A stretch of 64,000 nucleotides of DNA, taken from the NCBI GenBank assembly GCA_041744215.1, contig JBGTLG010000039.1, positions 1-64,000 on the forward strand. Direction: 5' to 3'. The stretch is from Fimbriimonadales bacterium (GTDB lineage: Bacteria > Armatimonadota > Fimbriimonadia > Fimbriimonadales > ATM1). The translations under genes and the position numbers were made by a program. The notes below the pieces were generated by a model. That model had not been told where the DNA came from. It did not search any database and saw only the letters and a program-made list of their open reading frames with translations. This document shows positions 21,559 to 41,384 of the stretch, in pieces. The first letter of the stretch is position 1. The number at the start of each line of letters is the position of its first letter.

Positions 21559-22347
21559 ATGCCGCGACCAAAACATACACCTGCAGTCAAGTTTGCGTTA
21601 TCAGCCGTCCTCGGGATGACCTTCCCGATGGCGACCTTTGGAACCTCGGTCGGCGTCTACACCCGCGGGAACCCGGCACCTGAGTTCGTCCCATTAGTGA
21701 TGCCCGAACTACAAGCTCAGTTGAGTATCGCGATCGTGGAAATGGCCTTTGGCGACATCAGCCGAACTGCGCCCAGGGCAGCGGCGGCAGGGTTGCCCTC
21801 ACGGATCAGCGTTTACATCGATACAGGAACTCTTCCCCCGAGCAGAGCGTCGCAGCTTCGCTCGTGGGCTGAGGAGGGGGTCCGCGAATGGGATCGCGCG
21901 CAGATTAGTGTGCCGATCGACTTCATTGACTCGCCGACGCGCGCCACAACTGTCATTCGCTTTGTAGATCGGCTCGTAGTCGATGGACGCAGGATGGCCG
22001 GTTTCATCGAGTGGACCCGAAGGGTGATTCGAAACGGAGGCGGCTCGAACCTGGAGGTGCGATCCCTAATCAGAGTCTCGAATCGATTCTCAAACGGAAG
22101 CCTGATGTCGGAAGGACAAATCAAGAAGGTCGTCGCTCATGAGTTTGGACACCTGCTGGGCCTAGCGGATGACGATTGCTCGAAGTCGCTTATGGGGCCG
22201 GTTGGCCCTCACGCGGACGGCATCGTGCCGGACTCTGCTGTTCAAGCTGTGGCTGAGTTGCGCGGGCGAAGTCAGGAGGTCGTTGCGGCTGCGCAACAGG
22301 TTCGTCCTGAGTCCAAGCAGCCACGCATTTTCGTCTTTGCCAAGTAA
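21559..22347 (+). CDS. Secreted matrixin-like zinc metalloprotease
   Basis: HEFGHLLGLAD plus Met-turn SLMGP. Confidence 0.75.
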   Translation: MPRPKHTPAVKFALSAVLGMTFPMATFGTSVGVYTRGNPAPEFVPLVMPELQAQLSIAIVEMAFGDISRTAPRAAAAGLPSRISVYIDTGTLPPSRASQLRSWAEEGVREWDRAQISVPIDFIDSPTRATTVIRFVDRLVVDGRRMAGFIEWTRRVIRNGGGSNLEVRSLIRVSNRFSNGSLMSEGQIKKVVAHEFGHLLGLADDDCSKSLMGPVGPHADGIVPDSAVQAVAELRGRSQEVVAAAQQVRPESKQPRIFVFAK

Positions 22348-22353
22348 CAGGCT

Positions 22354-22842
22354 CTAGGCCGGAAACTCTGGGTGTGAGCGGATCATCCAGATCTGTCCCG
22401 TGTGGTAGCCCGCATGCTGCGCTAGACGAGCCAGACCTTCACGACCTGAAACGTCGTCACCCACTGGGCTCACCAGTCGCATCTCAAGCTGGTCGATCGT
22501 TGGGCTAGACAACACCGGCTCGATCTCGACTTCCGTGAACTCCAGCGCAGCAAGGCAGCCAGCAACCGTCATCTCTGCATCGTCGAAAGGAGAGTGACCA
22601 TCGCGCAAGAATCCGTCCTTCACTGCTAAGTCCAGTTTTCCTTCGTAATCCGTTCTTGCCGGATTTTGGCCGTGAAGCCGGGCTGCCCAATAGTGCTCTG
22701 CGCCCGCAATGTGATAGAGAATCTCAGCGATAGTATGTGAGCGCTCGTGCTGCCGCCAGGTTACTTGGTTGTCGGACAGTCCGTCGATCGCCTGCGAAAG
22801 CCTCTGCCTCGTGAATCTCCAAACGTCATAAAGATCGCTCAT
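22354..22842 (-). CDS. DinB family protein
   Basis: HIAGAEHYW and HAGYHTGQI His triad. Confidence 0.85.
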   Translation of the reverse strand: MSDLYDVWRFTRQRLSQAIDGLSDNQVTWRQHERSHTIAEILYHIAGAEHYWAARLHGQNPARTDYEGKLDLAVKDGFLRDGHSPFDDAEMTVAGCLAALEFTEVEIEPVLSSPTIDQLEMRLVSPVGDDVSGREGLARLAQHAGYHTGQIWMIRSHPEFPA

Positions 22843-22961
22843 GAATCAAACTTACCTTGACCAACAACCCGTCCAAACGATAGGCAAATTGCGATAGAAT
22901 TGGTGTAGATCGTAAGCTCGCATTGTTTGCCTGGTAATTCTGCCAGGCCATTGGAGGAAAG

Positions 22962-24689
22962 TTGATGATACGCAAAATGAAAGTATTAGTTGGAGTTGCT
23001 CTAGGGGCAACGATGGTGGTGTCCGCGGTCGCGCAGACAATCACGCTTCCGGATTACTTCGTTGAGACAATCGTAGCGGGAGGGACCGGGCTTTCGCAAC
23101 CCACAACAATGGCCTTCATCGGGTCGAACGACTTCTTGATACTTGAGAAAGCGACCGGTAACGTGAAGCGCTATACGAACGGTGCGTTCCAAGGTGTTGT
23201 GCTTAATGTGCCGGTAAACTCATCCAGCGAACGTGGACTACTGGGCATCTGCTTGCATCCTGATTTTCCAGTTGTCCCTCAGGTTTATCTCTACTATTCG
23301 CGTGCGGCGACCGCAGGAGGAACGTGGTTGGACAACCGCGTCGATCGATTCAATTGGAATGGCACCAATCTGACGTTCGACATGAACATCATTTCGTATC
23401 CTTCCTCTGCATCGCAAGCTAATGGCGCGAATCACGACGGCGGAATCATCATGATTGGTCCCGACCGAAAGCTCTACGTCGTCACCGGAGATCTAAACCG
23501 TGGTCGATTTGCGAATCCTCGTATCGAGCAGAACACCAGCACTACTGCGGTTGCAGACGTTGGCGGGATTGACCGGCTTGAGCTTGACGGTGGCACACCT
23601 GTAGATAACCCTTTCATTGGTCATGCGGATCCACGCATTCGAAAGTACTTCGCCTACGGGGTACGGAACTCGTACGGCATGTGCTATGACCCAGTCACAA
23701 ACAAGGTTTGGATCACCGACAACGGGCCCAACGTTTATGACGAGATCAACTACGTTGAAGCCGGATTCAATGGCGGTTGGCTAAAAATCATGGGTCCCGA
23801 TTCGCGCAATGCGACGTACACCGAAAACGGCTTCACTTCGTTCAACGCCGGCGACCTCACAGTACTCCCAGGCTCGCACTACCGAGATCCGGAATTCAGT
23901 TGGTTGGCGCCAATCGGGGTCACATCGATTCGCTTTCTGAGCAGCGAAAAGTTCTATCCAAGTGAGCGTAATGGGATGCTCGTCGGCGATAACAACACTG
24001 GCCAACTCTACTTTTACGAGATGACTCCTGCGCGCGACGCGCTCGTCCTGTTTGGAGGAACTCTTGACAAAGTTGCTGACTCAACCGCGGAGAGGAACCA
24101 GCACAGAGTTGGAACTGGCTGGGGCGTGACCACCGACATAGTGATTGGCCCTGATGGCTATGCGTACCTCGTAAGCCTGTCGGCAGGCGCAGTTCGCCGG
24201 ATACGACCCTCGATCGAGACAGTCTATGCCAACAGCTACACGCTTAACACAGGTGTAGAGGTAGGTGGAAATCTTCAGTCGTTGCGCGAGAGCGACAACG
24301 ACCGACTATCGATTCGCGAGGTGCCACCAGTGGCGCTGGGCGGGCCGTCGGTTGTTGTGACGGTGTTTGGCCTTTCGCCGGTCCTTGCGCCCACAGAACT
24401 TCGGTTGATCGTCGAGCACTCGACTACCGGCGTTCCTGCAAGCGCGGTGACTATTCGAACGATGATGTTCAACTTCCAAACTAACTCCTACGACATCGTG
24501 GATCAACGAGCAGGAACCGCTGCCGACACTGTCGTGGAGGTAGTCATCGGAAGCAACACTTCGCGATACATTAACCAGGCCACAAATGAAGTGAGGACGA
24601 GGATCCAATACTTCGATCCTGGAACATTGTTCTCATTCGGCTGGGTGGGAAGGATAGACCAAGTCAATTGGAGAGTTCGTGTACAGTAG
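22962..24689 (+). CDS. Secreted PQQ-dependent sugar dehydrogenase (GSDH) with C-terminal beta domain, copy 1
   Basis: ERGLLG, NHDGG, GVRNSYG, DEIN; signal peptide. Confidence 0.88.
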   Translation: MMIRKMKVLVGVALGATMVVSAVAQTITLPDYFVETIVAGGTGLSQPTTMAFIGSNDFLILEKATGNVKRYTNGAFQGVVLNVPVNSSSERGLLGICLHPDFPVVPQVYLYYSRAATAGGTWLDNRVDRFNWNGTNLTFDMNIISYPSSASQANGANHDGGIIMIGPDRKLYVVTGDLNRGRFANPRIEQNTSTTAVADVGGIDRLELDGGTPVDNPFIGHADPRIRKYFAYGVRNSYGMCYDPVTNKVWITDNGPNVYDEINYVEAGFNGGWLKIMGPDSRNATYTENGFTSFNAGDLTVLPGSHYRDPEFSWLAPIGVTSIRFLSSEKFYPSERNGMLVGDNNTGQLYFYEMTPARDALVLFGGTLDKVADSTAERNQHRVGTGWGVTTDIVIGPDGYAYLVSLSAGAVRRIRPSIETVYANSYTLNTGVEVGGNLQSLRESDNDRLSIREVPPVALGGPSVVVTVFGLSPVLAPTELRLIVEHSTTGVPASAVTIRTMMFNFQTNSYDIVDQRAGTAADTVVEVVIGSNTSRYINQATNEVRTRIQYFDPGTLFSFGWVGRIDQVNWRVRVQ

Positions 24690-26436
24690 GTCACACTCAA
24701 ACAAAGTAAATCGAAGGAGCGTGAGACGATACTGCGTGTCGATCTTGCTCGCGTCAGGTGCCCTTGCAAACGCTAGCCCAGCAGCAGGGCAAACGCTAAA
24801 TCTGCAAGGGTACTTCTACGAAACAGTTGCCACGGGGTTGTCATTTCCCACTATGATGGCCTTCGTGGACCACAATGACTTCCTCGTTCTCGAAAAGAAT
24901 ACGGGAAAAGTGAAGCGATATGTGAATGGGGTGTTCGTGGGCGAAGTACTCGACTTAGCGGTGTCGAACCAAAGCGAGCGCGGACTGCTCGGTATCGTAA
25001 GTCATCCCGACTTTCCTCAAGTGCCAAAATTCTACGTATACTATTCACGAGCAACAGTTGACGGAGGAACATGGCTCGATAACAGGGTCGAGACGTTTAC
25101 ATGGAATGGCACGACGCTCGTTGTCGATCAACTGATCGCGGATTGGCCACCTGACCCCACGCAAAACAACGGGCCAAATCATGATGGCGGATACATGGTC
25201 ATCGGCCCAGATCGAAAGCTATACATCCAAACGGGAGACCTTAACCGTGGTCGATTCAACAATCCAAGAATCGAGCAAAACACAAGCTCAACTGCAGTGG
25301 CTGGCGTTGGCGCGATCGAAAGGAGAGAACTTGATGGCTCGGCTCCCCCAGACAATCCGTTCTTCTCACATTCGGATCCACGAGTTCGAAACTACTACTG
25401 CTACGGCTTTCGAAACGGTTATGGAATGGCATTTGATCCCGTCACAGACATACTTTGGATGACAGAAAACGGATCAGGCAGCTACGATGAAATCAACTAC
25501 TGTCTTCCTGGACTCAACTCCGGGTGGGTGAAAATCATGGGGCCAGACAAGCGTGACGCCTCATATGCAGAAAATGGGTTCCAGGTTTTTGATGCAGAAG
25601 ACTTGTTTTACTTGCCAGGCTCGCACTATCGCGACCCGGAGTTTAGTTGGCTGGCGCCTGTAGGAGTTACCGCACTCGAGTTCTTGCGAAGCCGAAAGTT
25701 TTACCCATCCGAGAGAAACGCAATGTTCGTCGGCGACATCAATGGCGGGCGGCTCTTTTATTTTCAACTAACGCCCTCTCGTGACGAACTCGAACTCTTT
25801 GGCGGGACTTTGGATAAGGTTGCAGACACGCTGGAAGAGCGCAATCAGCACGTCGTTGGCACTGGATTTGCAGGAATAACCGATATAAAAATTGGTCCAG
25901 ATGGTTATGCGTACATCGTCAGCTACTTCAACGGTGCTGTTTACCGCATTCGACCAATTGTTGAGACAGTCTATGCAACTTCATTGCAGATGTTGACAGG
26001 CGTCATTCAATCTGGCGGACTCGCAGAGCTCGAGGAGAGCGATGATTTGAAGTTCATCGTTCGCGAAGCCCCACCAATTGCGCTCGGCGGACCTTCTGTC
26101 GCGTTCTTTATCGAAGGCACCTCGCCGGAGGCTTCTCCAGTCGAAGTTTCCTTCGTTGCCGAATTTTCGACCAGCGCTGCGCCTGCACCCGCGACTACCT
26201 TCCGTACTAGTTTGTTCAACTTCCAAACAAACTCATACGAGATTATCGATTCCCGTGCCGGAACAGCTACGGACGTTTCTTTTGAGGTCAGCATCACGAA
26301 GAATCCTTCGCGCTTTGTCGACCCGACTTCGCGGACTATCAGAGCAAGGTTTCAAGTGCTGGATCCCGGCACCTTGTTCACGTTTGGTTGGGCTGCCCGC
26401 TTTGATACAGCCGTTTGGAAAGTAACCGTCCGTTAG
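24679..26436 (+). CDS. Secreted PQQ-dependent sugar dehydrogenase (GSDH), copy 2
   Basis: Same motifs, collinear with copy 1; start uncertain. Confidence 0.88.
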   Translation: MYSRSHSNKVNRRSVRRYCVSILLASGALANASPAAGQTLNLQGYFYETVATGLSFPTMMAFVDHNDFLVLEKNTGKVKRYVNGVFVGEVLDLAVSNQSERGLLGIVSHPDFPQVPKFYVYYSRATVDGGTWLDNRVETFTWNGTTLVVDQLIADWPPDPTQNNGPNHDGGYMVIGPDRKLYIQTGDLNRGRFNNPRIEQNTSSTAVAGVGAIERRELDGSAPPDNPFFSHSDPRVRNYYCYGFRNGYGMAFDPVTDILWMTENGSGSYDEINYCLPGLNSGWVKIMGPDKRDASYAENGFQVFDAEDLFYLPGSHYRDPEFSWLAPVGVTALEFLRSRKFYPSERNAMFVGDINGGRLFYFQLTPSRDELELFGGTLDKVADTLEERNQHVVGTGFAGITDIKIGPDGYAYIVSYFNGAVYRIRPIVETVYATSLQMLTGVIQSGGLAELEESDDLKFIVREAPPIALGGPSVAFFIEGTSPEASPVEVSFVAEFSTSAAPAPATTFRTSLFNFQTNSYEIIDSRAGTATDVSFEVSITKNPSRFVDPTSRTIRARFQVLDPGTLFTFGWAARFDTAVWKVTVR

Positions 26437-27368
26437 CGCGAAAAAAAGCTTCTGATAAAGAAGAAAAGGTTAGCGGGTCGCTCCGCAAGCCTGCGCGTGA
26501 AGTACGGATACCAACTGCTGCCGTAGGGGACATACACGCGGACAATGTTTCCACGCTTTTTGAGCTGCTGTTGAAGATTCCTCCGTATTCCGTACAGGAA
26601 TTGGTACTCGAAGCGACCGTGAGAGATGTCGCTTCGATCCGCAAACTCATTAATCTGATCAATGATTGCAGAGTCATGGGTGGCGATGCCCGGATGCACC
26701 GCATCGCGTATGAGTTTGCAGGCTGCCATCACGAACGCTTCGTTGACTGCCTTCTTTTTTGTGAGCGCAACAGCTGCTGATTCCAAGTAAGCGCCCTTGA
26801 CTAACCGTATTCGGACTCCCGCCGCCACGAGTCGCTCAATATCCGTCGGTGTCCGGTGGAGCATTGCCTGCAAAACTGTTCCAACATTTCGATGCCGCTG
26901 CGCGGCATTGAGTACCAACCGGATGGTCACGTCTGTCAGCGCACTCTCCTCCATGTCGATGCGGACGAAGATCGGAGGATCGCTGGCTGCTGCCAAAAGA
27001 CTCTCAAGCCGACCCGCGCACCTGGCCTCATCGATGTGCGCACCAAGTTGTGATAGCTTTATCGAGATGTTGATTCTCTCAGGGATCCACCCCCCGAAGT
27101 GCGGCGATTCCGAAATGGCCTGAACTAAGCTAAGGTACTCCTGGAGAGCGGCGTCAGCTTCTTCATCCGTTGCGACATTCTCGCCCAGCAGATCAAGGGA
27201 AACCTTGTAGCCCTCGGAAGCGAGGCTCTCTGCGACAGCCATCGCCTCTTCCAGGGTGTCGCCCGCGACGAAGCGCCGAACAACGCCCCTGAACACCCGG
27301 CTTCTTCGAACGAACCGCTCAATGGCCTGGTTGCGGGCGAGAGAGAGTATGAGACTGCGCAAGATCAT
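26433..27368 (-). CDS. Monofunctional proline dehydrogenase
   Basis: RFVAG, DLLGE, RIDME, RLVKGAY, ATHD, YFTRRLAERPAN. Confidence 0.92.
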   Translation of the reverse strand: MILRSLILSLARNQAIERFVRRSRVFRGVVRRFVAGDTLEEAMAVAESLASEGYKVSLDLLGENVATDEEADAALQEYLSLVQAISESPHFGGWIPERINISIKLSQLGAHIDEARCAGRLESLLAAASDPPIFVRIDMEESALTDVTIRLVLNAAQRHRNVGTVLQAMLHRTPTDIERLVAAGVRIRLVKGAYLESAAVALTKKKAVNEAFVMAACKLIRDAVHPGIATHDSAIIDQINEFADRSDISHGRFEYQFLYGIRRNLQQQLKKRGNIVRVYVPYGSSWYPYFTRRLAERPANLFFFIRSFFSR

Positions 27369-27638: not shown

Positions 27639-30600
27639 ATGAAAGAGATCAAGCACGCCTCGAGTCCGCTAAGCCAGGTTCTCGAGGTCCCGAACCTCAT
27701 AGAGGTTCAATTGAACTCATACAAGCAGTTTCTTGAACAAGGACTTCCCGAACTTCTAAAAAGCTTCTCCCCGATCAAAGATTTCACCGGGTCGAACTAC
27801 ATAGAGTTTCTCGATTTCTCGCTCGGAGAGCCTAAGTACGACATCGACGACTGTCGCGACCGCGACGTTACGTTTGAGGCGCCCATCAAGGTGCGGGTCC
27901 GACTAGGCGGCCGAGACCGGGAGGTCATCGAGTCGGAGGTCTACCTCGGAGACTTGCCCCTGATGACGAACCAAGGGACGTTCATCATCAATGGACGTGA
28001 AAGAGTCATCGTCTCCCAACTAAGCCGTAGCCCCGGCGTTTACTTCTTTGACGAGCCCCAGCAGGCGACAAAGTGGGAACTCCGCCACGTCCTCATGCAT
28101 CGGCTTCCCCTCCGTGCGGAGGTGCTCCCAAACCAAGGCAAGTGGCTTGAGGTCAGCGAAGCCGAACCGAATTTCGTCCTGTTCGCACCGCTGAATCAGA
28201 GCAAAAAGATCCCCGTAACCCAGTTGCTCAAGGTTTTGTCCGCGTTCGAGACGGCGCGCGTCCCGACGCGATTGCTGGTTGAGAACGCAGTGAACAAGCG
28301 GCTAGCTGAGCCTCTTGCCGACCCGGAGACCGGCGAGGTCCTCGGCGACGCCGAAACTCTGCTTACGCAAGAATTCATTGACAGCCTTCCAAAGAGCGTC
28401 CGGGGCACCAAGGCGGTGGTTCACACCCCCGTCGGATCGAACGAGGAGCTCGTTACCTCTTTCGGTGTCAAACACGTGCTGAAGTCCCCGAAAGAAGGCG
28501 ACCTGATCGGAAAGCGCGCGACAGGGGACATCAAGGATGGAGACGAGGTCGTAATCGCGAAATCTGGCCGGATTGATCGAGACGTGGCAAAGAAGATCGC
28601 TGCGATGGGCCTGAAGCGACTTGAGGTCATTGAGGTCAACCCATTTATTGACGCGACTCTCGAACACGACACTACGGATTCGACCAAAACCGCCCTCAAA
28701 GACCTGCATAGAAAGTTGCGTCCAGGAGAGTCACCTGACGAGGAGAACGCTAAGTCACAGTTCTATTCCCTGTTCCTGGACCCTAGAAACTATGATTTAG
28801 GCCGAGTCGGGCGACACCAGATGAATCGCCGCCTCGGGATCGAACTCCCGGACACGGCGCGCAACATAACCATCGAAGATGTGGTTGCGATGATCAATCG
28901 ACTCGGGCTACTGCTCGAAGGCGAGATCGGCGGCGACAACATCGACCACCTTCAAAACAAGCGCATCAAATCGATCGGCGAATTGCTTCTCAATCAGATG
29001 CGTGTCGGCCTCAGCCGGATGGAGAAGGTAGCTCGAGAGAGAATGACAAGCGCCGAGCCAGAGAACTTGCTGCCCGGGATCATTCTGAGCGTGAAGCCAG
29101 TTACGGCAAGCATCCGCAGCTTCTTCAGCAGTAGTCACCTGAGCACGTTCATGGATCAGACCAACCCGCTAAGCGAACTGTCAAACAAGCGGAGACTCTC
29201 GACTCTGCCGGATCGCAGACCGTCCGCGTCTGGGCGCGCGGGAGTTGTCGACGCGCAACGTGAAGTTCAGCCAAGCGAATATGGCCGAATCTGCCCCATC
29301 GAGACGCCGGAAGGGCCCAACGTAGGACTTATGAAACAGCTCAGCGTATACGCAAAGATCGATGAAGACGGTTTCTTGCACGCGCCTTTCCGAACCGTCA
29401 AGAACGGCAAGGTTACTGACGAACTCAGCTATCGCGTATCAGGAGACGAGGACGACAAAAAAGTAGCCCCGCCGGATACACCTCTTGGCCCCAACGGCGA
29501 AATCTTGGACGATCCTGTTATGGTTCGTTTCCGAGGCGAATTCCCCGAAGTTCCTCGCAACGACGTTGAGCTTATGGACGCTTCGCCGCTCATCTTTTCT
29601 GTCGCAGCTTCCTGTGTTCCATTCCTGAATCACGACGACGGGGCACGGGCCCTGATGGGCGCGAATATGCAGCGCCAGGCAGTGCCCTTGCTCCGTTCAG
29701 AGGGGGCCTTCGTTAGCACCGGTTATGAAGAGAGAATCGCCCGCGATACAGGGACGACCATCCTCGCGCACCGGTCGGGCATTGTGAGAAACGTCACGGC
29801 GTTGTCGATCCAGATTGAAGCCGACGACGACGGCACTCTCGATGTGTACCCTCTGGAGCACCTGCGCCAGTCGAACAAGTCTACGTGCTTCACGCACAGA
29901 CCGCAAGTGTTTCCGGACGAGCGGGTCACAAAGGGTCAGCCAATCGCCGATGGCCCATCCTGTCACGACGGAAAACTTGCCCTTGGCAAGAACCTCGTTG
30001 TCGCGTTCATGCCGTGGCGTGGCTACAACTTCGAAGACGCGATTTTGGTGAGCGAGCGACTGGTCAAGGAAGACACGTTTACGTCCATCCATATCGAACG
30101 ATACGACACCGAAGCGGTCGACACAAAGCTTGGGCCGGAAGAAATCACCCGAGATATTCCGAACGTCGGTGAAGAGGCTTTAAAGGATCTTGACGAAAGT
30201 GGCATCGTCCGGATCGGAGCCGACGTGCGTCCTCTCGACATCCTCGTAGGAAAGGTCGCTCCGAAGGGTCAGGTTGAACTAACGGCCGAAGAGCGACTCA
30301 TCATCGCGATCTTCGGGAAGAAAGCGGAAGAAACTCGCGACGTATCGTTGCGAGTCCCACACGGCGAGCAAGGCACAGTCATCGACGTGAAGGTATTCAG
30401 CCGCTACAAGTACCGCGACAAGGCGACCGGCAAGATTTTCCACGAGTCGAAGAAGCGCGAGCACATGGTGAGTGAGATAACAGGCGGCGATCTGGAGCAG
30501 ATTCCAGGTGATGAGCTACCTGCCGGAACGAACATGACTGTCCAGGTGCATGTCGCGCAAAAGCGCAAGATTACGGTCGGAGACAAGATGGCGGGGCGGC

Positions 30601-31655
30601 ACGGAAACAAGGGTGTCATTTCGCGGATCGTCGCTGAGGAAGATATGCCTTTCCTCGCCGATGGACGCCCGGTGGACATCGTGCTGAACCCACTCGGCGT
30701 ACCGAGCCGATTGAATGACGGTCAGATGCTTGAGTCGCTGCTCGGATTGGCGGGAGCGAAGCTTGGCATTCGCTTCATCTGCCCTGCGTTCGAGGGCTCA
30801 AGGCCTGAGCAGGTGATGGCGGAGATGCGGCGCATCGCCGAACAAACTCGCCGAGACGTTTTGCAGGCATACGTAAACTCGGAACTGGGCCTCAATCTCA
30901 GTTTCAAGCGAGGTGTGGCTGTACAAGAGATGCTGAATGAGATCGAGGACGCGCTTCGCAAGCTTGGGAAGACCCGGCTCGAGGCGGTATCGAGGCTCGT
31001 AGCCGCCGAACCTGCGATAAGCGTCGCAGACATGGATCCTGAAGCCGAGTTCGTTGTTGAAGACAATGAACCCGCGCATAAGGCTCCTGATCCAGTGTAC
31101 ATATCGATCCTCGATGCGATCCGACAACGTGTTTGGGTTCGCGCCGGAATTGATGAGACAACCGGAAAGAGTCTGTTACGCGATGGTTGGTCTGGCGACT
31201 TCTTGGAGTTCCCCGTCTCTGTTGGCGTGATGTATATGTTCAAGCTTGAGCACCTCGCCGAAGAGAAGATTCACGCTCGGAGCATTGGCCCATATTCTCT
31301 GGTAACTCAGCAGCCGCTTGGCGGAAAAGCCCAGTTCGGCGGCCAGCGCTTCGGAGAAATGGAAGTCTGGGCGCTCGAAGCGTATGGCGCGGCGAATACA
31401 TTGCAGGAGATCATCACGATCAAGTCTGACGATGTGATGGGCAGAGTCAAAACGTACGAGAGCATCGTGCGTGGAGAAACAATGCTCGAGCCAGGGATAC
31501 CAGAATCGTTCAAGATCCTCGTCAACGAGCTAAGGAGCCTCGGCTTGCGCGTCACAGTTGAGGACGCAAACAACCGGGAAATCAGCCTCCGAGACCTAGA
31601 CGAGCATTCGCAGGGCGACGACATGAAGCTCGCGAGATCAGTCGGCTTCTTTTGA
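27639..31655 (+). CDS. rpoB: RNA polymerase beta subunit (divergent)
   Basis: CPIETPEG, RALMGANMQRQ, GDKMAGRHGNKG, GGQRFGEMEVWALEAYG. Confidence 0.98.
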   Translation: MKEIKHASSPLSQVLEVPNLIEVQLNSYKQFLEQGLPELLKSFSPIKDFTGSNYIEFLDFSLGEPKYDIDDCRDRDVTFEAPIKVRVRLGGRDREVIESEVYLGDLPLMTNQGTFIINGRERVIVSQLSRSPGVYFFDEPQQATKWELRHVLMHRLPLRAEVLPNQGKWLEVSEAEPNFVLFAPLNQSKKIPVTQLLKVLSAFETARVPTRLLVENAVNKRLAEPLADPETGEVLGDAETLLTQEFIDSLPKSVRGTKAVVHTPVGSNEELVTSFGVKHVLKSPKEGDLIGKRATGDIKDGDEVVIAKSGRIDRDVAKKIAAMGLKRLEVIEVNPFIDATLEHDTTDSTKTALKDLHRKLRPGESPDEENAKSQFYSLFLDPRNYDLGRVGRHQMNRRLGIELPDTARNITIEDVVAMINRLGLLLEGEIGGDNIDHLQNKRIKSIGELLLNQMRVGLSRMEKVARERMTSAEPENLLPGIILSVKPVTASIRSFFSSSHLSTFMDQTNPLSELSNKRRLSTLPDRRPSASGRAGVVDAQREVQPSEYGRICPIETPEGPNVGLMKQLSVYAKIDEDGFLHAPFRTVKNGKVTDELSYRVSGDEDDKKVAPPDTPLGPNGEILDDPVMVRFRGEFPEVPRNDVELMDASPLIFSVAASCVPFLNHDDGARALMGANMQRQAVPLLRSEGAFVSTGYEERIARDTGTTILAHRSGIVRNVTALSIQIEADDDGTLDVYPLEHLRQSNKSTCFTHRPQVFPDERVTKGQPIADGPSCHDGKLALGKNLVVAFMPWRGYNFEDAILVSERLVKEDTFTSIHIERYDTEAVDTKLGPEEITRDIPNVGEEALKDLDESGIVRIGADVRPLDILVGKVAPKGQVELTAEERLIIAIFGKKAEETRDVSLRVPHGEQGTVIDVKVFSRYKYRDKATGKIFHESKKREHMVSEITGGDLEQIPGDELPAGTNMTVQVHVAQKRKITVGDKMAGRHGNKGVISRIVAEEDMPFLADGRPVDIVLNPLGVPSRLNDGQMLESLLGLAGAKLGIRFICPAFEGSRPEQVMAEMRRIAEQTRRDVLQAYVNSELGLNLSFKRGVAVQEMLNEIEDALRKLGKTRLEAVSRLVAAEPAISVADMDPEAEFVVEDNEPAHKAPDPVYISILDAIRQRVWVRAGIDETTGKSLLRDGWSGDFLEFPVSVGVMYMFKLEHLAEEKIHARSIGPYSLVTQQPLGGKAQFGGQRFGEMEVWALEAYGAANTLQEIITIKSDDVMGRVKTYESIVRGETMLEPGIPESFKILVNELRSLGLRVTVEDANNREISLRDLDEHSQGDDMKLARSVGFF

Positions 31656-31704
31656 TCAAAACAGGGCATAGCCCACAAAACAACTCAGGAGACTCAAAAC
31701 AACA

Positions 31705-32001
31705 ATGGCAAGTGTAAGATTCGTATTCGACAGCGGCGACGTAATCATCCCCGCAGAGACAGACCGCAGCGCAAAGCTGATCATGTCAGGCTTCCGGCGA
31801 AAGATGGAGGCCGGCGATGAGATGATCGATGTCAAAGGAAAGGACGGCGTTCGGCTAGTTAATGCGGGCAAAGTGAACTACATCGAAATCGTCGGCGGCT
31901 CAGCCCGCAGCAGCAAGCCCGCGGCACGCGGAGGCGCAACGGCGAAGAAGACAGTTCGTAAGGCGAAGACCACTCCCGCGCGCGGTCGTAAGCGACGATA
32001 A
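31705..32001 (+). CDS. Small hypothetical protein with basic tail between rpoB and rpoC
   Basis: 98-aa ORF with AGGAG upstream; ~63-aa globular part plus K/R/A-rich tail. Confidence 0.8.
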   Translation: MASVRFVFDSGDVIIPAETDRSAKLIMSGFRRKMEAGDEMIDVKGKDGVRLVNAGKVNYIEIVGGSARSSKPAARGGATAKKTVRKAKTTPARGRKRR

Positions 32002-32046
32002 CAGCCACCGCCGTATTGGCAACCAAACTGGAGTTGAAATCACAGC

Positions 32047-35000
32047 ATGCCCGACGTAACTCTTTTTGAAAAAATCCGTGTGGGAATTGCGAGCCCGGAA
32101 GACGTTCTCGCATGGTCTCATGGCGAAGTAAAGAAGCCCGAGACCATCAACTATAGAACGTTCAAGCCGGAGCGTGATGGACTTTTCTGCGAGCGGATTT
32201 TTGGACCGGTCAAAGACTGGGAGTGCCACTGCGGTCGATACAAGAAGGTCAAGTACAAGGGCATCGTGTGTGAGAGGTGTGGCGTCGAAGTCACCCGGTC
32301 GCGCGTGCGCCGCGAGAGGATGGGTCACATCGAACTCGCGGCGCCCGTGTGTCACATTTGGTTTTTGAAGGGCGTCCCTTCGCCGGTTGCGCTTCTCCTA
32401 AACATCGGACCACGCGATCTTGAAAAGGTCGTCTACTTTGGGTCGTTCATCGTCATCGACCTTGACAAAGTGGGCCTCGACGAGGGCCGGTCACAGATTG
32501 AAGAACTAGTCGAGCTCGAAAAGTCCGCGCTCGAGCAAAGCATGGCTGAGCTTGAGGAAGAGATTCGCGACGCATTCGCCAGCGAGTTGGAGGAGAACAA
32601 GGACGAGTATGACGAGTCAATCATCAAGGATCGCACGAAAGCGGTCAATGATCGGATAAAGGCCGAGCAGCGAGACTCCCAAGATCGCGTCAAAGAGATG
32701 GATGTCGCGCTGGAAGTACTGTATAAGCTTGAGCAGAATCAACTGATCGAGGAAGACAAGTTCCGAGCTGTCGATCGGATGTTGAATGCTGTGTCCCGTC
32801 GAAGCGGCAAGCAGTACAACCAGATGCTTAAAGCTGGCATCGGTGCGGCTGCGATCAAGGAGCTTCTGCTCCGGGTCAACCTCGACTCGACTTCCAAGGA
32901 GCTTCGCGCAGGCATCATGCGGAGCCAAGGACCAAAGCGCGCGCGCATGATTAAGCGCCTCGAAATTGTCGAAGCGTTTATCAACTCGAAGACTAAGCCC
33001 GAGTGGATGGTCCTAGAGGTAATGCCCGTGATCTCGCCTGAGCTACGGCCCATGGTTCAGCTTGATGGCGGCCGGTTCGCGACATCCGATCTCAACGATC
33101 TCTACCGACGCATCATCAATCGGAACAATCGTCTGCGCAAGATTATAGAAATCCGGGCTCCTGAATCAATCATCAATCATGAGAAGCGTTTGCTGCAAGA
33201 AGCGGTAGACGCACTTGTCGATAATGGCCGTCGGTCCCGACCGGTGGTCGGCAGCAACAATCGTGCTTTGAAGTCCTTGAGCGACATGCTTAAAGGCAAA
33301 GAGGGACGGTTCCGAAAGAACTTGCTTGGAAAGCGTGTGGACTATTCTGGAAGAGCTGTCATTGTGGTGGGTCCTCACCTCAAGCTCCATCAATGCGGTT
33401 TGCCGAAAGAAATGGCGCTTGAGCTGTTCAAACCCTACGTGATGAAGGCGCTCGTGGACCAAAAGCTCACGCAGAACATCAAGACTGCGAAGCGCATGAT
33501 CGACCGAATGCACCCGGCAGTGTGGGATGCTCTTGAGGAAGTCATCAAAGATCACCCGGTGCTGCTTAACCGCGCTCCAACGCTCCACCGATTCGGCATT
33601 CAAGCCTTCGAACCGATCCTCGTCGACGGCAAGGCGATCCAGGTGCATCCACTCGTGTGTCCGCCCTTCAATGCGGATTTTGACGGTGACCAGATGGCCG
33701 TGCACGTTCCTCTCAGCGCTGCCGCACAGGCCGAAGCACGCATCCTAATGCTGTCGAGCAATAACCTGTTCTCGCCAGCGGATGGACAGCCGACGATGGC
33801 ACCGGTACAGGACATCATTCTTGGATCGTACGCACTAACTGCTCTCAACCGTAAAGCGCTTACGCGCTTCGAAGCGGAGACAGCTGCGCATCGGAAGGAT
33901 CCCGAAAAAGTGCGCGCACCGATGACGTTCTCGTCCCCTGACGAGGCAATCCTCCTTGCAACGCACCCAGATGCCGCGGTTCGGATTCCACTGAACGACC
34001 CCGTTTTCGTCCGTGTCCGACGTCCATCCGGATTAGCAAATGAAGCGGGCGAGTTCGAAGAGTGGGAGACTGTCGTGCGACAAATGACGCCCGGTCAGTT
34101 GATCTTCCACGAAGTGCTCCCGTACCCAGTAAAGCACCACGATGATTGGATTGGAGTCGAGTTCACAAAACGAAACCTGACTCGGCTCATCACTCACGTA
34201 CGCAACGCAACTTCAACGCAAAAGACTGTCGAGATGTTGGATCAAATCAAGGAGCTCGGATTCGAGTGGGCGACACGATACGGATTGACAATCGCGCTTT
34301 CGGACGTAGACCCGCGCTCCGCTCCAACTTCCGACCTATCGCTTGTCAATGAAATGGCACGGCGCGAAATCGCAGGTCAGGCCATCAGCCATGATATCGA
34401 GAAAGATTTTGAAACTGCAGGACGATTGAAGGGCCTGATTGAGGCTAAGATCGGCGAAGCTAAAAAGGCGACCACCGAAGTTCGAAAGCACTATCAGCTT
34501 GGCACGATGGCGACGAACGAGCGAGACCGAAAGCTACAAACGATTTGGCAGGGCGCGTTCGGAGCGCTGTCCGACACTATTGTTACGGAGATGGGGCAAT
34601 TCAACCCGCTTCGAATGATGGTCGACTCAGGCGCAAGGGGATCGCGTGAGCAGTTGGTTCAGCTGATGGCAACGCGCGGAATGTTCCGTAACAACTTCAA
34701 TCAGCCGATCACGGACATTGTAGGTGGCAACGGGTTGTTCGATGGCTCACGTGTGTTCGAGTACTTCGTGTCGATGTTCGGTGCCCGAAAGGGTGTCACG
34801 GATACCGCGCTCTTGATGGGTTACTCCGGATTCATCGCCCGCCGTCTCGTTGATGTGTCACACGACATCGTGATCAAAGCTGAGGACTGTGGCACCACCC
34901 AGGCCATCTACGTCGCGAAGATTATCAAAGAAGGGGACGTCGTTGAGCAACTCAGCATTCGATGCAAGGGTCGAACGTCGATTGAACGAGTTACATTGCC

Positions 35001-36762
35001 TGGCAGCAAGGAAGAAGTCGTGCTCTGCGAAGCTGGTGACGCCTTTGGCGACAAGGGTGCGGCGCTCTTAGACGAAGCCGACGCTCTCTATTACAAGCTT
35101 CGAAGCGATGCTCAAGAGGCGAAAGACGTCGATAAGGCGACCGAGAAAGTCGAGGCCGACTTCCGCAAACACGGCTTCCGCATTGGTGAGCACGGCGAGT
35201 TGCAGGTATCAATCAGGAGTCCGCTTACGTGCGATCTCGACAGCGGCATCTGTTCCAAGTGCTATGGCTGGGACCTCTCGACCAAGAAGTTCGCCGAGGT
35301 TGGCCTTGCAGTTGGCGTCATCGCAGGTGAAACGATGTCTGAACCTCTGTCTCAGTTGACGATGAGAACATTCCACCACGGCGGCGTTGCGACGGGCACG
35401 GTCCTTACTGGATACAACCAAGCTGGGCGAATGTACGGCACACTACACCAAGAGCTCAAGGTTGACCTCAAGACTGATGAGCTTGACGTGCATGAGATGC
35501 CGGACTTTATTGGTGAGCAGCGCGGCTTGCTCGATGAACTCACGGGGAAGGCCGAGCGGCTCAAGGCCGAAGCAGAGAAGCCGACAAAGAAGACTAAAAA
35601 GTCCTTGACGCCTCCTCCGCGAACCACAGCGAACCGTCAACTCGCTCGGGAGTTGGTGGAGCACTCGTTCTATCACTACGTAGGCATACCCTTCGTAGAG
35701 AGGCTTCTTGAAGCTCGTCGCGCGCCCAAGGGTGAGGCAGTCGTGTCTCGCTACGATGGTGTGGTCGACACAATCAAGGTCGGTCAGCTTGGTCGATGGA
35801 TTGTGATCCGGGCTATCGTCACCCCTGGGGAGCACGACATCGCTGGTAAGACGATCGCTGAGCGGGTCCTCCATCCAGAAACGAAAGAGACACTTATCGA
35901 AGCTGGCACAGAGATCAACAAGGCAGCTACCGACAAGCTTGCGAAGCACGGCGTGGAGAAGCTCACGATTTTCGAAGTGATCCTTCTTCCGAAGCGTCGA
36001 ATCCTTCTGGTTGAGACAGGCGACAAAGTCAAAGCGGGCGATCCTCTCACCCAGGGTCCGCTCGATCTTGGCAGCCTCCTCGAGTTCCGAGGAGTTCGCG
36101 CGGTGCAAGAATATCTGGTAAGTGAACTTCAGTCGATTTACAAGTCGAATGGCGTTAGCATCAACGACCGTCACTTGGAGGTCATCTGTCGCCAGATGCT
36201 GCGAAAGGTTCGCATAAAGGAAGGCGGTGACTCAAAGTTCTTGCCCGGCCAAATCATAGATCGATTCGCTTTCCGAAGAGAGAACGAACGTCTTCAGCAG
36301 ATGATTGCAGCGAAAGAAGAAGTCGAGTATGAGGACATTGAAACCAGCGACATGAAGAAACGGCTTCCGATTCCTGCCACGGCTGATGCAGTCATTCAGG
36401 GCATCACCGAAGCCGCCCTAACGACTGAGTCATTCCTATCGGCGGCCTCCGCGCAGAAGACTGTTCGTGTGCTTACAGACGCGGCCGTCAAGGGGCGCAC
36501 AGACGATCTAGTGGGCCTAAAGGAAAACGTGATCATTGGGCGGCTGATCCCCGCCGGATCAGGATTCCCGGCATACCGAAACATCGCCGTCAAGACGACG
36601 CGAGAGCCGGTGTGGGCAAAGGCTCCTATCACGGCACTCGCGAGTATGCAAGACCGCGAGGATGTGGAGGAGATCGAAGAATTCGACGAGAGCGATATCG
36701 GAGATATCCGATCGCTCGCTGAGAGCCTCGGCGCAGAACGCGTCGACGAAGCAGACGTTTAG
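32047..36762 (+). CDS. rpoC: RNA polymerase beta' subunit (divergent)
   Basis: N-terminal Zn ribbon, [30 protein letters not shown]. Confidence 0.98.
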
Positions 36763-36768
36763 AGAACA

Positions 36769-36817
36769 GAAGTAGATCCGGCAACGGGCTGGTAGTAAGC
36801 CCTGCCGGATCTACTTC
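36769..36817. terminator. Long hairpin between convergent genes, probable bidirectional terminator
   Basis: GAAGTAGATCCGGCA...TGCCGGATCTACTTC 15-bp inverted repeat. Confidence 0.6.
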
Positions 36818-37676
36818 CGTTCTGGAATCAACGTCCAGTTCACCTGGCACGGCGAGCCCTCGCTCGTCGTGATCACGCGGCGGAAATCAAAGTCAAAGCA
36901 GATTGCCTCGCTCTGGCCCTCGAATGGAACTGGTATTGCCGCAGGTCGCTTTGTGAACCAATCGTCCGGTGATCCTTCATAGAGTAAGGCTGCCAGATAA
37001 GTTCGAATCACGACTCGCGTGCCGTTGGCGTTCATATCCCCAGCAGTTGCCATTCGCATCAGAGGAGTTGAGCCATCAAGACGTAAAGTCCCCAACCTCC
37101 GCAGTGTTGACTCACCGTGCTTGAGATCAGAAAAGTAGACACCGCTCTCACCATCTCGTGACTTTGTGACAAGCTGAACGTTGCCTTCGGGAGTGACGAG
37201 CAGAGCTTCACAATCATGCTCGCCGTCAGGGTATCTAAGAACAAACTTCTCGAACTCTGTCACTTGGATGCTGCCCGCAGCTGTCGATGGCTCAGGGATT
37301 CGGTAGACGATGACCGACTGGCGGATGCGATTGTTGTCACCAATGTCTCCCACGAAAAGATAAGGCTTGCCATTGATCGTAGCGCTTGCAATGTCTTCCC
37401 AATCTACCGCCTCGACACCCTTCAACGTGTAAGTCCCCAAGTCCTTTCCGCTCGCATCGAACGCATAGAGGTTTGCGCCGTCTCCGCTGTCGTTGTGTGT
37501 CCAGTAAACGCCCCTTGTGAGCCGAGAAAGGGCTATTCCACTACTTTCGACAACCTCAGCGCTTTCAAGAGTACACAGCCTGCCAAAGACCTGCTGTTCG
37601 ATAACGGGTAGTCTGGCCTCAACATTTGCGGAAGCACAGCCTGCAACAAAAGCCATAACGCAAATGAGTGTGCGCA

Positions 37677-37677
<1 letters not shown>
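36811..37677 (-). CDS. Putative lipoprotein, conserved beta-propeller-like family
   Basis: Lipobox VAGC; ESSG, HNDSGD, DWEDIA, GDIGDN, DCEAL motifs. Confidence 0.7.

Positions 37678-41384
<3,707 letters not shown>

Follow-up and report, generated by a model that had tools for sequence, protein, structure and literature searches.

The DNA analysed here is a stretch of 64,000 nucleotides (the window; positions 1 to 64,000 of the forward strand of contig JBGTLG010000039.1, assembly GCA_041744215.1) from a Fimbriimonadales bacterium of the phylum Armatimonadota. It carries the genes for the two large subunits of RNA polymerase (RNAP), rpoB (β) and, directly 3' of it, rpoC (β'), and the trigger loop (TL) encoded by rpoC holds a large insertion between two divergent trigger helices. 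The rpoC product contains the Pfam Rpb1 domains 1 to 5 in order (PF04997, PF00623, PF04983, PF05000 and PF04998, all above their cut-offs) and matches solved bacterial β' chains with E = 0, the best being enzymes of the Clostridium type and of actinobacteria. Both the catalytic NADFDGD loop and LTMRTFH are present in the β' translation, and M1106, R1107 and H1110, corresponding to E. coli M932, R933 and H936, are kept; residue numbers of β and β' were related to E. coli K-12 by alignment. The coordinates of all features are given in the table.

Table. Features of rpoB, rpoC and the trigger loop in the window (positions in nucleotides of the window; aa, amino acids)
Feature	Position	Strand	Remarks
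rpoB (β subunit)	27639..31655	+	1338 aa; six Pfam Rpb2 domains; directly 5' of rpoC
Fork loop 2 and following segment	29190..29294	+	β 518-552; GPGGL (E. coli 534-538) replaced, 3 aa longer
β link region	29628..29645	+	β 664-669, NHDDGA for E. coli EHDDAN 672-677: E672N, A676G, N677A
rpoC (β' subunit)	32047..36762	+	1571 aa; sole genomic copy found
F-loop and bridge helix	34648..34866	+	β' 868-940; holds 21 of the 43 clade-fixed changes in β'
Trigger-loop N-arm	35311..35385	+	β' 1089-1113; S1098 = E. coli G924, L1101 = G927; 1089-1110 predicted helix
Trigger-loop insert	35386..35682	+	β' 1114-1212, 99 aa; all-α by prediction
Insert helix 1 (predicted)	35410..35475	+	residues 1122-1143, contains D1140; DSSP on model md1ea8d38f6e1
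Insert helix 2 (predicted)	35506..35574	+	residues 1154-1176; best-predicted part of the insert
Basic linker, Lys/Thr/Pro-rich	35575..35625	+	residues 1177-1193, includes KKTKK; no predicted secondary structure, low confidence
Insert helix 3 (predicted)	35626..35667	+	residues 1194-1207, runs into the C-arm
Trigger-loop C-arm, [12 protein letters not shown]	35683..35718	+	β' 1213-1224; F1216 = E. coli R1140, L1221 = F1145

The segment at 35314-35720, for which the original prediction had proposed divergent trigger helices and a TL insertion unlike SI3, corresponds to β' residues 1090-1224. The quoted helix motifs are present in the translation, the N-arm string [21 protein letters not shown] spanning residues 1093-1113 and ending at G1113, and the C-arm string [16 protein letters not shown] spanning residues 1209-1224. 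Between the GG that follows TFH and the G of GIPF there are 99 residues, and the 100 residues that had been given for GG to IPF are the exact count on the translation; TFH and FEAR are 114 residues apart. The insert lies between TFHHGG and GIPFV, i.e. between the two trigger helices, in the gap whose equivalent is filled by SI3 in E. coli, and its last residue, V1212, aligns with E. coli G1136. It is charged, as had been noticed, with 15 Lys or Arg and 15 Asp or Glu residues (30 of 99), contains the KKTKK patch at residues 1181-1185, and reaches a net charge of +7 in its most basic 20-residue segment.

In a Pfam search with the insert alone, run with E-values of up to 10, only an unrelated family was returned (E = 0.24), and PF21668 (RPOC_hybrid, SBHM) was not matched anywhere in the whole β'; the GD-box motif was not searched for separately. 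AlphaFold was run on a 161-residue fragment and, with more context, on β' 860-1420 (561 residues, alignment of 61 sequences; model md1ea8d38f6e1). The fragment model is all-helical with a predicted local distance difference test score (pLDDT) of 53.6, which is too weak for a fold assignment. The context model reaches a pLDDT of 81.7 and a predicted template modelling score of 0.77, and the block means of pLDDT in the insert rise from 49-69 in its first third to 83-92 around residues 1150-1179. DSSP assigned no strand to the insert in either model, only helices and coil, in agreement with the helical appearance described before. The insert is thus predicted to be helical and not a β-sandwich, consisting of three helices and a basic, Pro/Lys-rich disordered linker. 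Its described unlikeness to SI3 was borne out by the missing Pfam match, the absence of predicted strands and a length of 99 versus at least 198 residues, and a match to SBHM was looked for and not found, as far as prediction tells. The structural follow-up that had been proposed was informative in its first half, as the models are helical, but the Foldseek search with the 561-residue context model returned β' cores only (template modelling score of about 0.5, query-normalised) and says nothing on the insert. A wide VIA-align search with the low-confidence fragment model listed generic helical bundles only, with Z of 6.0 or less, and absence from that list excludes no family; the best ESM Atlas look-alike of residues 1112-1214 scored 0.82, which is chance level.

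We then compared the TL across Armatimonadota, sampling one to a few, mostly metagenome-assembled, genomes from each of about 40 GTDB families; one genome, G011, was left out of all alignments, trees and counts. In most families TFH and FEAR lie 72-88 residues apart; in family f28 the distance is 101-104 and in Fimbriimonadales 101-138. In a sample of other phyla (Planctomycetota, Patescibacteria, Chloroflexota, Actinomycetota, Omnitrophota, Spirochaetota and others), which was chosen by similarity to the query N-arm and is therefore not random, the spacing is bimodal, with 23-25 residues where no insert is present and at least 198 where it is of the SI3 type. Four families missed by the C-arm pattern (f13, f18, f20 and f35) have inserts of similar size when read by eye, and no short TL was found among the roughly 40 sampled families, which are related genomes and not a census. 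Insert size ranges from 60 to 131 residues over the phylum and from 86 to 131 in Fimbriimonadales. The basal form reads as a hairpin of two helices and a turn, with a length of about 50 residues (about 60 between GG and the G of the C-arm) and Gly-rich linkers to both trigger helices.

Alignment of inserts without their arms by hhalign connected those of Fimbriimonadales outside the clade of the window (defined below) to the basal hairpin with a probability of 96.5% (E = 7.4e-10, 53 columns), and those of the clade to the other Fimbriimonadales with a probability of 80% (E = 1.4e-5, 56 columns). Because these intermediates link the inserts, and because all share the site, an LTG start and an Asp (D1140; D62 of alignment A1) that is at least 90% conserved in 38 aligned sequences, we assign the insert of the window, with moderate confidence, to one ancestral Armatimonadota insertion of which it would be a diverged elaboration. 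Judged from the alignments, the Fimbriimonadales expansion is mainly a linker that varies in length and sequence and stays basic; of the 21 Fimbriimonadales sequences in alignment A1, 19 contain a 20-residue segment with a net charge of at least +4. The idea of an independent, lineage-specific module is consequently kept in part: the insert sits at the SI3 site and is not SI3-like, but it is not special to this organism, being phylum-wide in Armatimonadota and elaborated in Fimbriimonadales.

The divergent trigger helices are restricted to a single clade. In 122 of 123 distinct sequences outside this clade the seven residues preceding LTMRTFH read IGEPGTQ. This holds for each of the 21 other Fimbriimonadales, each of the 52 Armatimonadota outside that order and 49 of the 50 sequences from other phyla, the remaining one having IGQPGTQ. 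In 10 of 10 clade members MSEPLSQ is found instead, so that the divergence of the arms is, on these counts, far beyond chance. Only genera g1, g2 and g5-g9 (seven sampled genera) show derived arms. The other Fimbriimonadales have canonical ones; among them are g3 and g4, two genera of the same GTDB family, as well as families whose inserts are longer. In a maximum-likelihood tree of rpoB (23 sequences, midpoint root only) the derived-arm group is monophyletic (support 100/100), and its stem has a length of 0.30 substitutions per site. Clade members are 55-84% identical to each other in this part of β', and their arms are identical in 10 of 10 members except for one conservative change per arm. 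By this phyletic pattern the divergence of the trigger helices is a separate event, younger than the insert. The original prediction had presented divergent helices and insert together; both are indeed present in the window, but canonical arms persist in relatives whose inserts are longer, so that arms and insert are not coupled. Two further departures from the usual motifs were seen elsewhere. Three sequences from other phyla have GLPLV or GLPYV for GLPRV in the C-arm (a pattern match unchecked by eye), and loss of the Arg at E. coli position 1140 may not be unique to the clade. At loci L177, L205, L195 and L202 of families f13 and f35 the GG after TFH is replaced (TFHTVVG or TFHTVIG) and LTMRTFH reads FTMRTFH or FTLRTFH, a second, independent departure from the canonical TL.

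The remodelling extends beyond the TL, into elements that the original prediction had not mentioned. In β', 259 positions reach a conservation of at least 90% among 31 Armatimonadota from outside the clade; at 43 of them the 8 clade sequences whose loci were of sufficient length are fixed for a different residue. They include 21 of the 55 conserved positions in β' 851-950, which covers the F-loop and the bridge helix. The N-arm of the TL accounts for 8 more and its C-arm for 3, and no change falls on any of the 42 conserved positions in β' 501-600, around the catalytic loop. In the central part of the bridge helix, L-M-G-Y-S-G-F-I-A stands in place of E. coli K789-T797, the changed residues being L923, M924, G925, Y926, S927, F929, I930 and A931. 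In β, 22 of 495 conserved positions differ between 9 clade sequences and 14 other Fimbriimonadales, those of fork loop 2 and of the link region being among them. Following the altered fork loop 2, E. coli AGFEV (543-547) is replaced by VVDAQ in the window, the other Fimbriimonadales being canonical here, and the SRMNIGQ motif reads SRLNDGQ in the clade. Because the derived residues are near-invariant within a clade of low overall identity, the substitution pattern points to selection on the new state and not to decay. Two observations stand beside this result: E. coli β' H777 is a Phe in the window, and in one clade member (G009:C3:13778-17815, locus L169) rpoB is split into three parts whose matches contain one TAA and one TAG, which could reflect a mistake in the assembly, frameshifts or a true disruption of the gene.

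SI3 (β'i6; 188 residues and two SBHM domains in E. coli, larger in cyanobacteria) occupies the same point at the TL tip, from TFHxGG to GLPRV (E. coli 939 to 1137). Like SI3 the insert is a lineage-specific passenger domain on flexible linkers, so that it would be expected to move with TL folding. It differs from SI3 in that it is predicted to be all-α and not a β-sandwich, has no sequence-family match, is half the size or less (99-100 residues in the window versus 198 between GG and LPRV in E. coli) and is found in the range of Armatimonadota. Its linker is basic and predicted to be disordered, whereas the exposed surface of SI3 in E. coli is described as acidic (PMC2939025). On these grounds we read the insert of the window as an analogue of SI3 and not as a homologue. 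The contacts of SI3 change with TL folding, and SI3 modulates pausing (PMC11077087).

The β'i catalogue of Lane and Darst (2010) reportedly predates the Armatimonadota genomes. Bacterial TL insertions are described as SBHM/HABAS β domains in the sections covered of bioRxiv 10.1101/2021.01.27.428476, PMC11077087 and PMC11515920. The latter includes two Armatimonadetes genomes, is inconsistent on their β' type and, in its covered text, mentions no helical TL insert; canonical relatives in the same order include Fimbriimonas ginsengisoli, according to the genome list in its supplement. Neither a helical TL insert nor any rpoC insertion of Armatimonadota was described in the searched literature, with the β' table of PMC11515920, which may bear on it, lying outside the coverage.

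Compared with TLs that have no insertion (Actinomycetota, Chloroflexota, Patescibacteria), most Armatimonadota share the canonical arms ([17 protein letters not shown] ... RV..LFEAR), and the distance from TFH to FEAR is 23-25 residues in the former versus 72-138 in Armatimonadota. The clade changes affect the same elements as a set of E. coli mutants (β' F773V, P750L and G1136S/M; β V550A), namely F-loop, bridge helix, fork loop and the G1136 position, and E. coli changes in those elements alter catalysis, translocation, pausing and intrinsic cleavage (PMC3959191, PMC4756841). Single substitutions at the interface of the E. coli bridge helix with β lead to faster catalysis, slower translocation and blunted pausing (PMC3959191), and intrinsic RNA cleavage is tuned by the residue at G1136, whose identity correlates with whether SI3 is present (PMC4756841). 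The equivalents of β' F773 and β V550 are unchanged in the window, the mapping being by alignment numbering. In contrast to these mutants the clade has dozens of changes fixed together in nature and conserved over seven sampled genera. What stands out is a lineage-specific TL insertion with a different predicted fold, the clade-wide remodelling of the active centre being the more surprising part.

The interpretation that we favour, with a probability of about 0.6, is that an all-α insert at the SI3 site was enlarged in Fimbriimonadales and that, in one clade, the bundle of bridge helix and trigger helices was re-packed in a co-adapted manner. It starts from what was established directly, i.e. 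the position and composition of the insert, its predicted secondary structure, its phyletic pattern and the co-occurring substitutions. The all-α insert would reside at the TL tip, where SI3 sits in other phyla, its ancestral core being a phylum-wide helical hairpin of about 50 residues connected to the trigger helices by Gly-rich linkers, and the enlargement in Fimbriimonadales would consist of an extra helix and the basic, Lys/Pro-rich disordered linker. By analogy with SI3 the helical module would ride on the TL and shift as the TL folds and unfolds, and in doing so might bias the TL folding equilibrium that sets catalysis, pausing and cleavage. We infer this tuning of TL folding as the function of the insert. 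For the basic linker, a contact with nucleic acid or with an acidic part of the enzyme surface is conceivable. In the clade, the arms of the TL were changed together with F-loop, bridge helix, fork loop 2 and link region at positions that are near-invariant elsewhere, and the catalytic residues and the NADFDGD motif were retained; these changes may represent a co-adapted re-packing of the bridge-helix/trigger-helix bundle and its cap that would alter elongation dynamics.

Several points weigh against this interpretation. All structural statements on the insert come from predicted models; confidence in the fragment model is low, and even with the added context the prediction for the first third of the insert stays poor. 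When the clade insert was aligned directly to the basal hairpin by hhalign the probability was 5% over 13 columns, i.e. there was no significant match, and the 80% link through the other Fimbriimonadales was built on shallow alignments (10 and 12 sequences). Two clade members reach only +3 in their best 20-residue segment, and the variable length and sequence of the linker are as compatible with a neutral spacer as with a basic patch that has a function. Finally, 'phylum-wide' stands for one to a few genomes per family, and counts among kin are not independent.

The last but one of these points leads to the alternative that the insert, or at least its expansion in Fimbriimonadales, is a functionless low-complexity spacer tolerated on a surface loop. 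The linker has no conserved sequence and is predicted to be disordered, and whole inserts range over 86-131 residues within the order, all of which a spacer would explain. The helices, however, are well conserved, with 35 invariant columns among the 10 clade inserts, the hairpin is kept in every family sampled and the linker is basic in most lineages. Moreover, the TL is the most dynamic catalytic element, and a passenger of 100 residues is unlikely to be kinetically silent on it, as SI3 is not (PMC11077087). We thus regard a mere spacer as rather unlikely.

Concerning the clade changes, one may ask if they are an adaptation to natural-product inhibitors of this module, such as streptolydigin, salinamide or CBR compounds, and not a change of elongation per se. 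They lie on or beside published determinants, as exemplified by β N677, whose equivalent is A669, and β' A779, which is a Thr in most clade members and an Ala in the window. β 543-546, which we take to be a cluster of streptolydigin resistance, is VVDA in the window as compared to AGFE in E. coli. β' N792 is a Tyr in the window, and N792D raises the sensitivity of E. coli RNAP to streptolydigin (PMC3959191); sites of high-level salinamide resistance are β' R738, A779 and G782 as well as β D675 and N677 (PMC4029172). The overlap is only positional, however, with no link to a producer or a gene cluster, and 43 + 22 fixed changes are far beyond what resistance needs. As the same surfaces control translocation and pausing, an overlap with drug sites is expected for any change, and because these surfaces govern elongation kinetics anyway we consider resistance an improbable cause of the sequence changes.

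A more far-reaching version of our preferred interpretation, which is doubtful in its entirety, would combine three steps. The helical-hairpin passenger would be a second, unrelated solution at the TL, the basic tether of Fimbriimonadales would contact downstream DNA or RNA and thereby couple TL folding to the position of the nucleic acid, and one clade would have rebuilt the whole bundle, including F-loop and fork loop 2, at residues that are near-invariant in the other bacteria sampled.

A common origin with the insert of Gracilicutes, the insert being a degenerate or miniaturised SI3 (SBHM/HABAS), is very unlikely. The insertion point between the trigger helices is the same, and an ambiguous sentence in the covered part of a 2024 survey puts Armatimonadetes β' into 'type 4', with HABAS inserts at the SI3 site (PMC11515920). 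Against this stand the lack of a match to PF21668 or any other Pfam family, the absence of predicted strands from both models, the size of 60-131 versus at least 198 residues and the basal form, which reads as a plain two-helix hairpin. It is hardly credible that the divergent rpoC arose from faulty assembly or binning, is a pseudogene or belongs to a specialised second polymerase: the source is a metagenome-assembled genome (2.68 Mb, 42 contigs, estimated to be 93% complete, which leaves a small chance of a second rpoC on missing sequence), but rpoC is an uninterrupted frame of 1571 codons, it adjoins rpoB on a contig no shorter than 64 kb, it is the one rpoC match in the genome, and the same derived, conserved motifs recur in 10 of 10 clade genomes from seven genera.

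If an all-α insert is indeed phylum-wide, the TL tip would be a docking site of general use, open to passenger domains whose folds are unrelated, and a helical insert would provide a natural comparison that separates effects of the fold of SI3 from effects of its mere presence. The remodelled clade, in turn, is a natural experiment in which IGEPGTQ, the central bridge helix and fork loop 2 were replaced together while catalysis was presumably kept. It makes ideas on the coupling of bridge helix and TL, on pausing and on the inhibitor pocket directly testable, canonical relatives being available in the same order.

The proposal had also been that the insert gates the secondary channel, with compatibility with Gre factors as a check. 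The genome encodes a full-length GreA homologue (165 residues, PF03449 and PF01272; G000:C4:12885-13106, locus L142 1483-1980, minus strand), and with a complete GreA the secondary channel presumably still admits a Gre factor. The tip of the GreA coiled coil is acidic. It looks one residue longer than what we take to be the usual motif.

Besides the TL insert, β' has further extra segments relative to the Clostridium-type β' (PDB 8i23 chain D), at approximately residues 146-251, 754-802, 1006-1048 and 1243-1313. The first of these aligns with the region of the actinobacterial N-terminal insertion, and for the segment at about 1002-1041 two helices are predicted with high confidence. An antisense open reading frame (35443-36174) nested inside rpoC has no Pfam match and was treated as spurious.

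rpoB and rpoC are separated by a spacer of 391 nucleotides (31656-32046), and the pair does not adjoin ribosomal-protein or nusG genes. The 5' flank of rpoB (21559-27368) contains a proline dehydrogenase gene on the minus strand and two glucose/sorbosone dehydrogenase paralogues, and the 3' flank of rpoC (36811-40555) comprises an open reading frame of 288 amino acids, an OGG-like glycosylase and an NAD-dependent DNA ligase.

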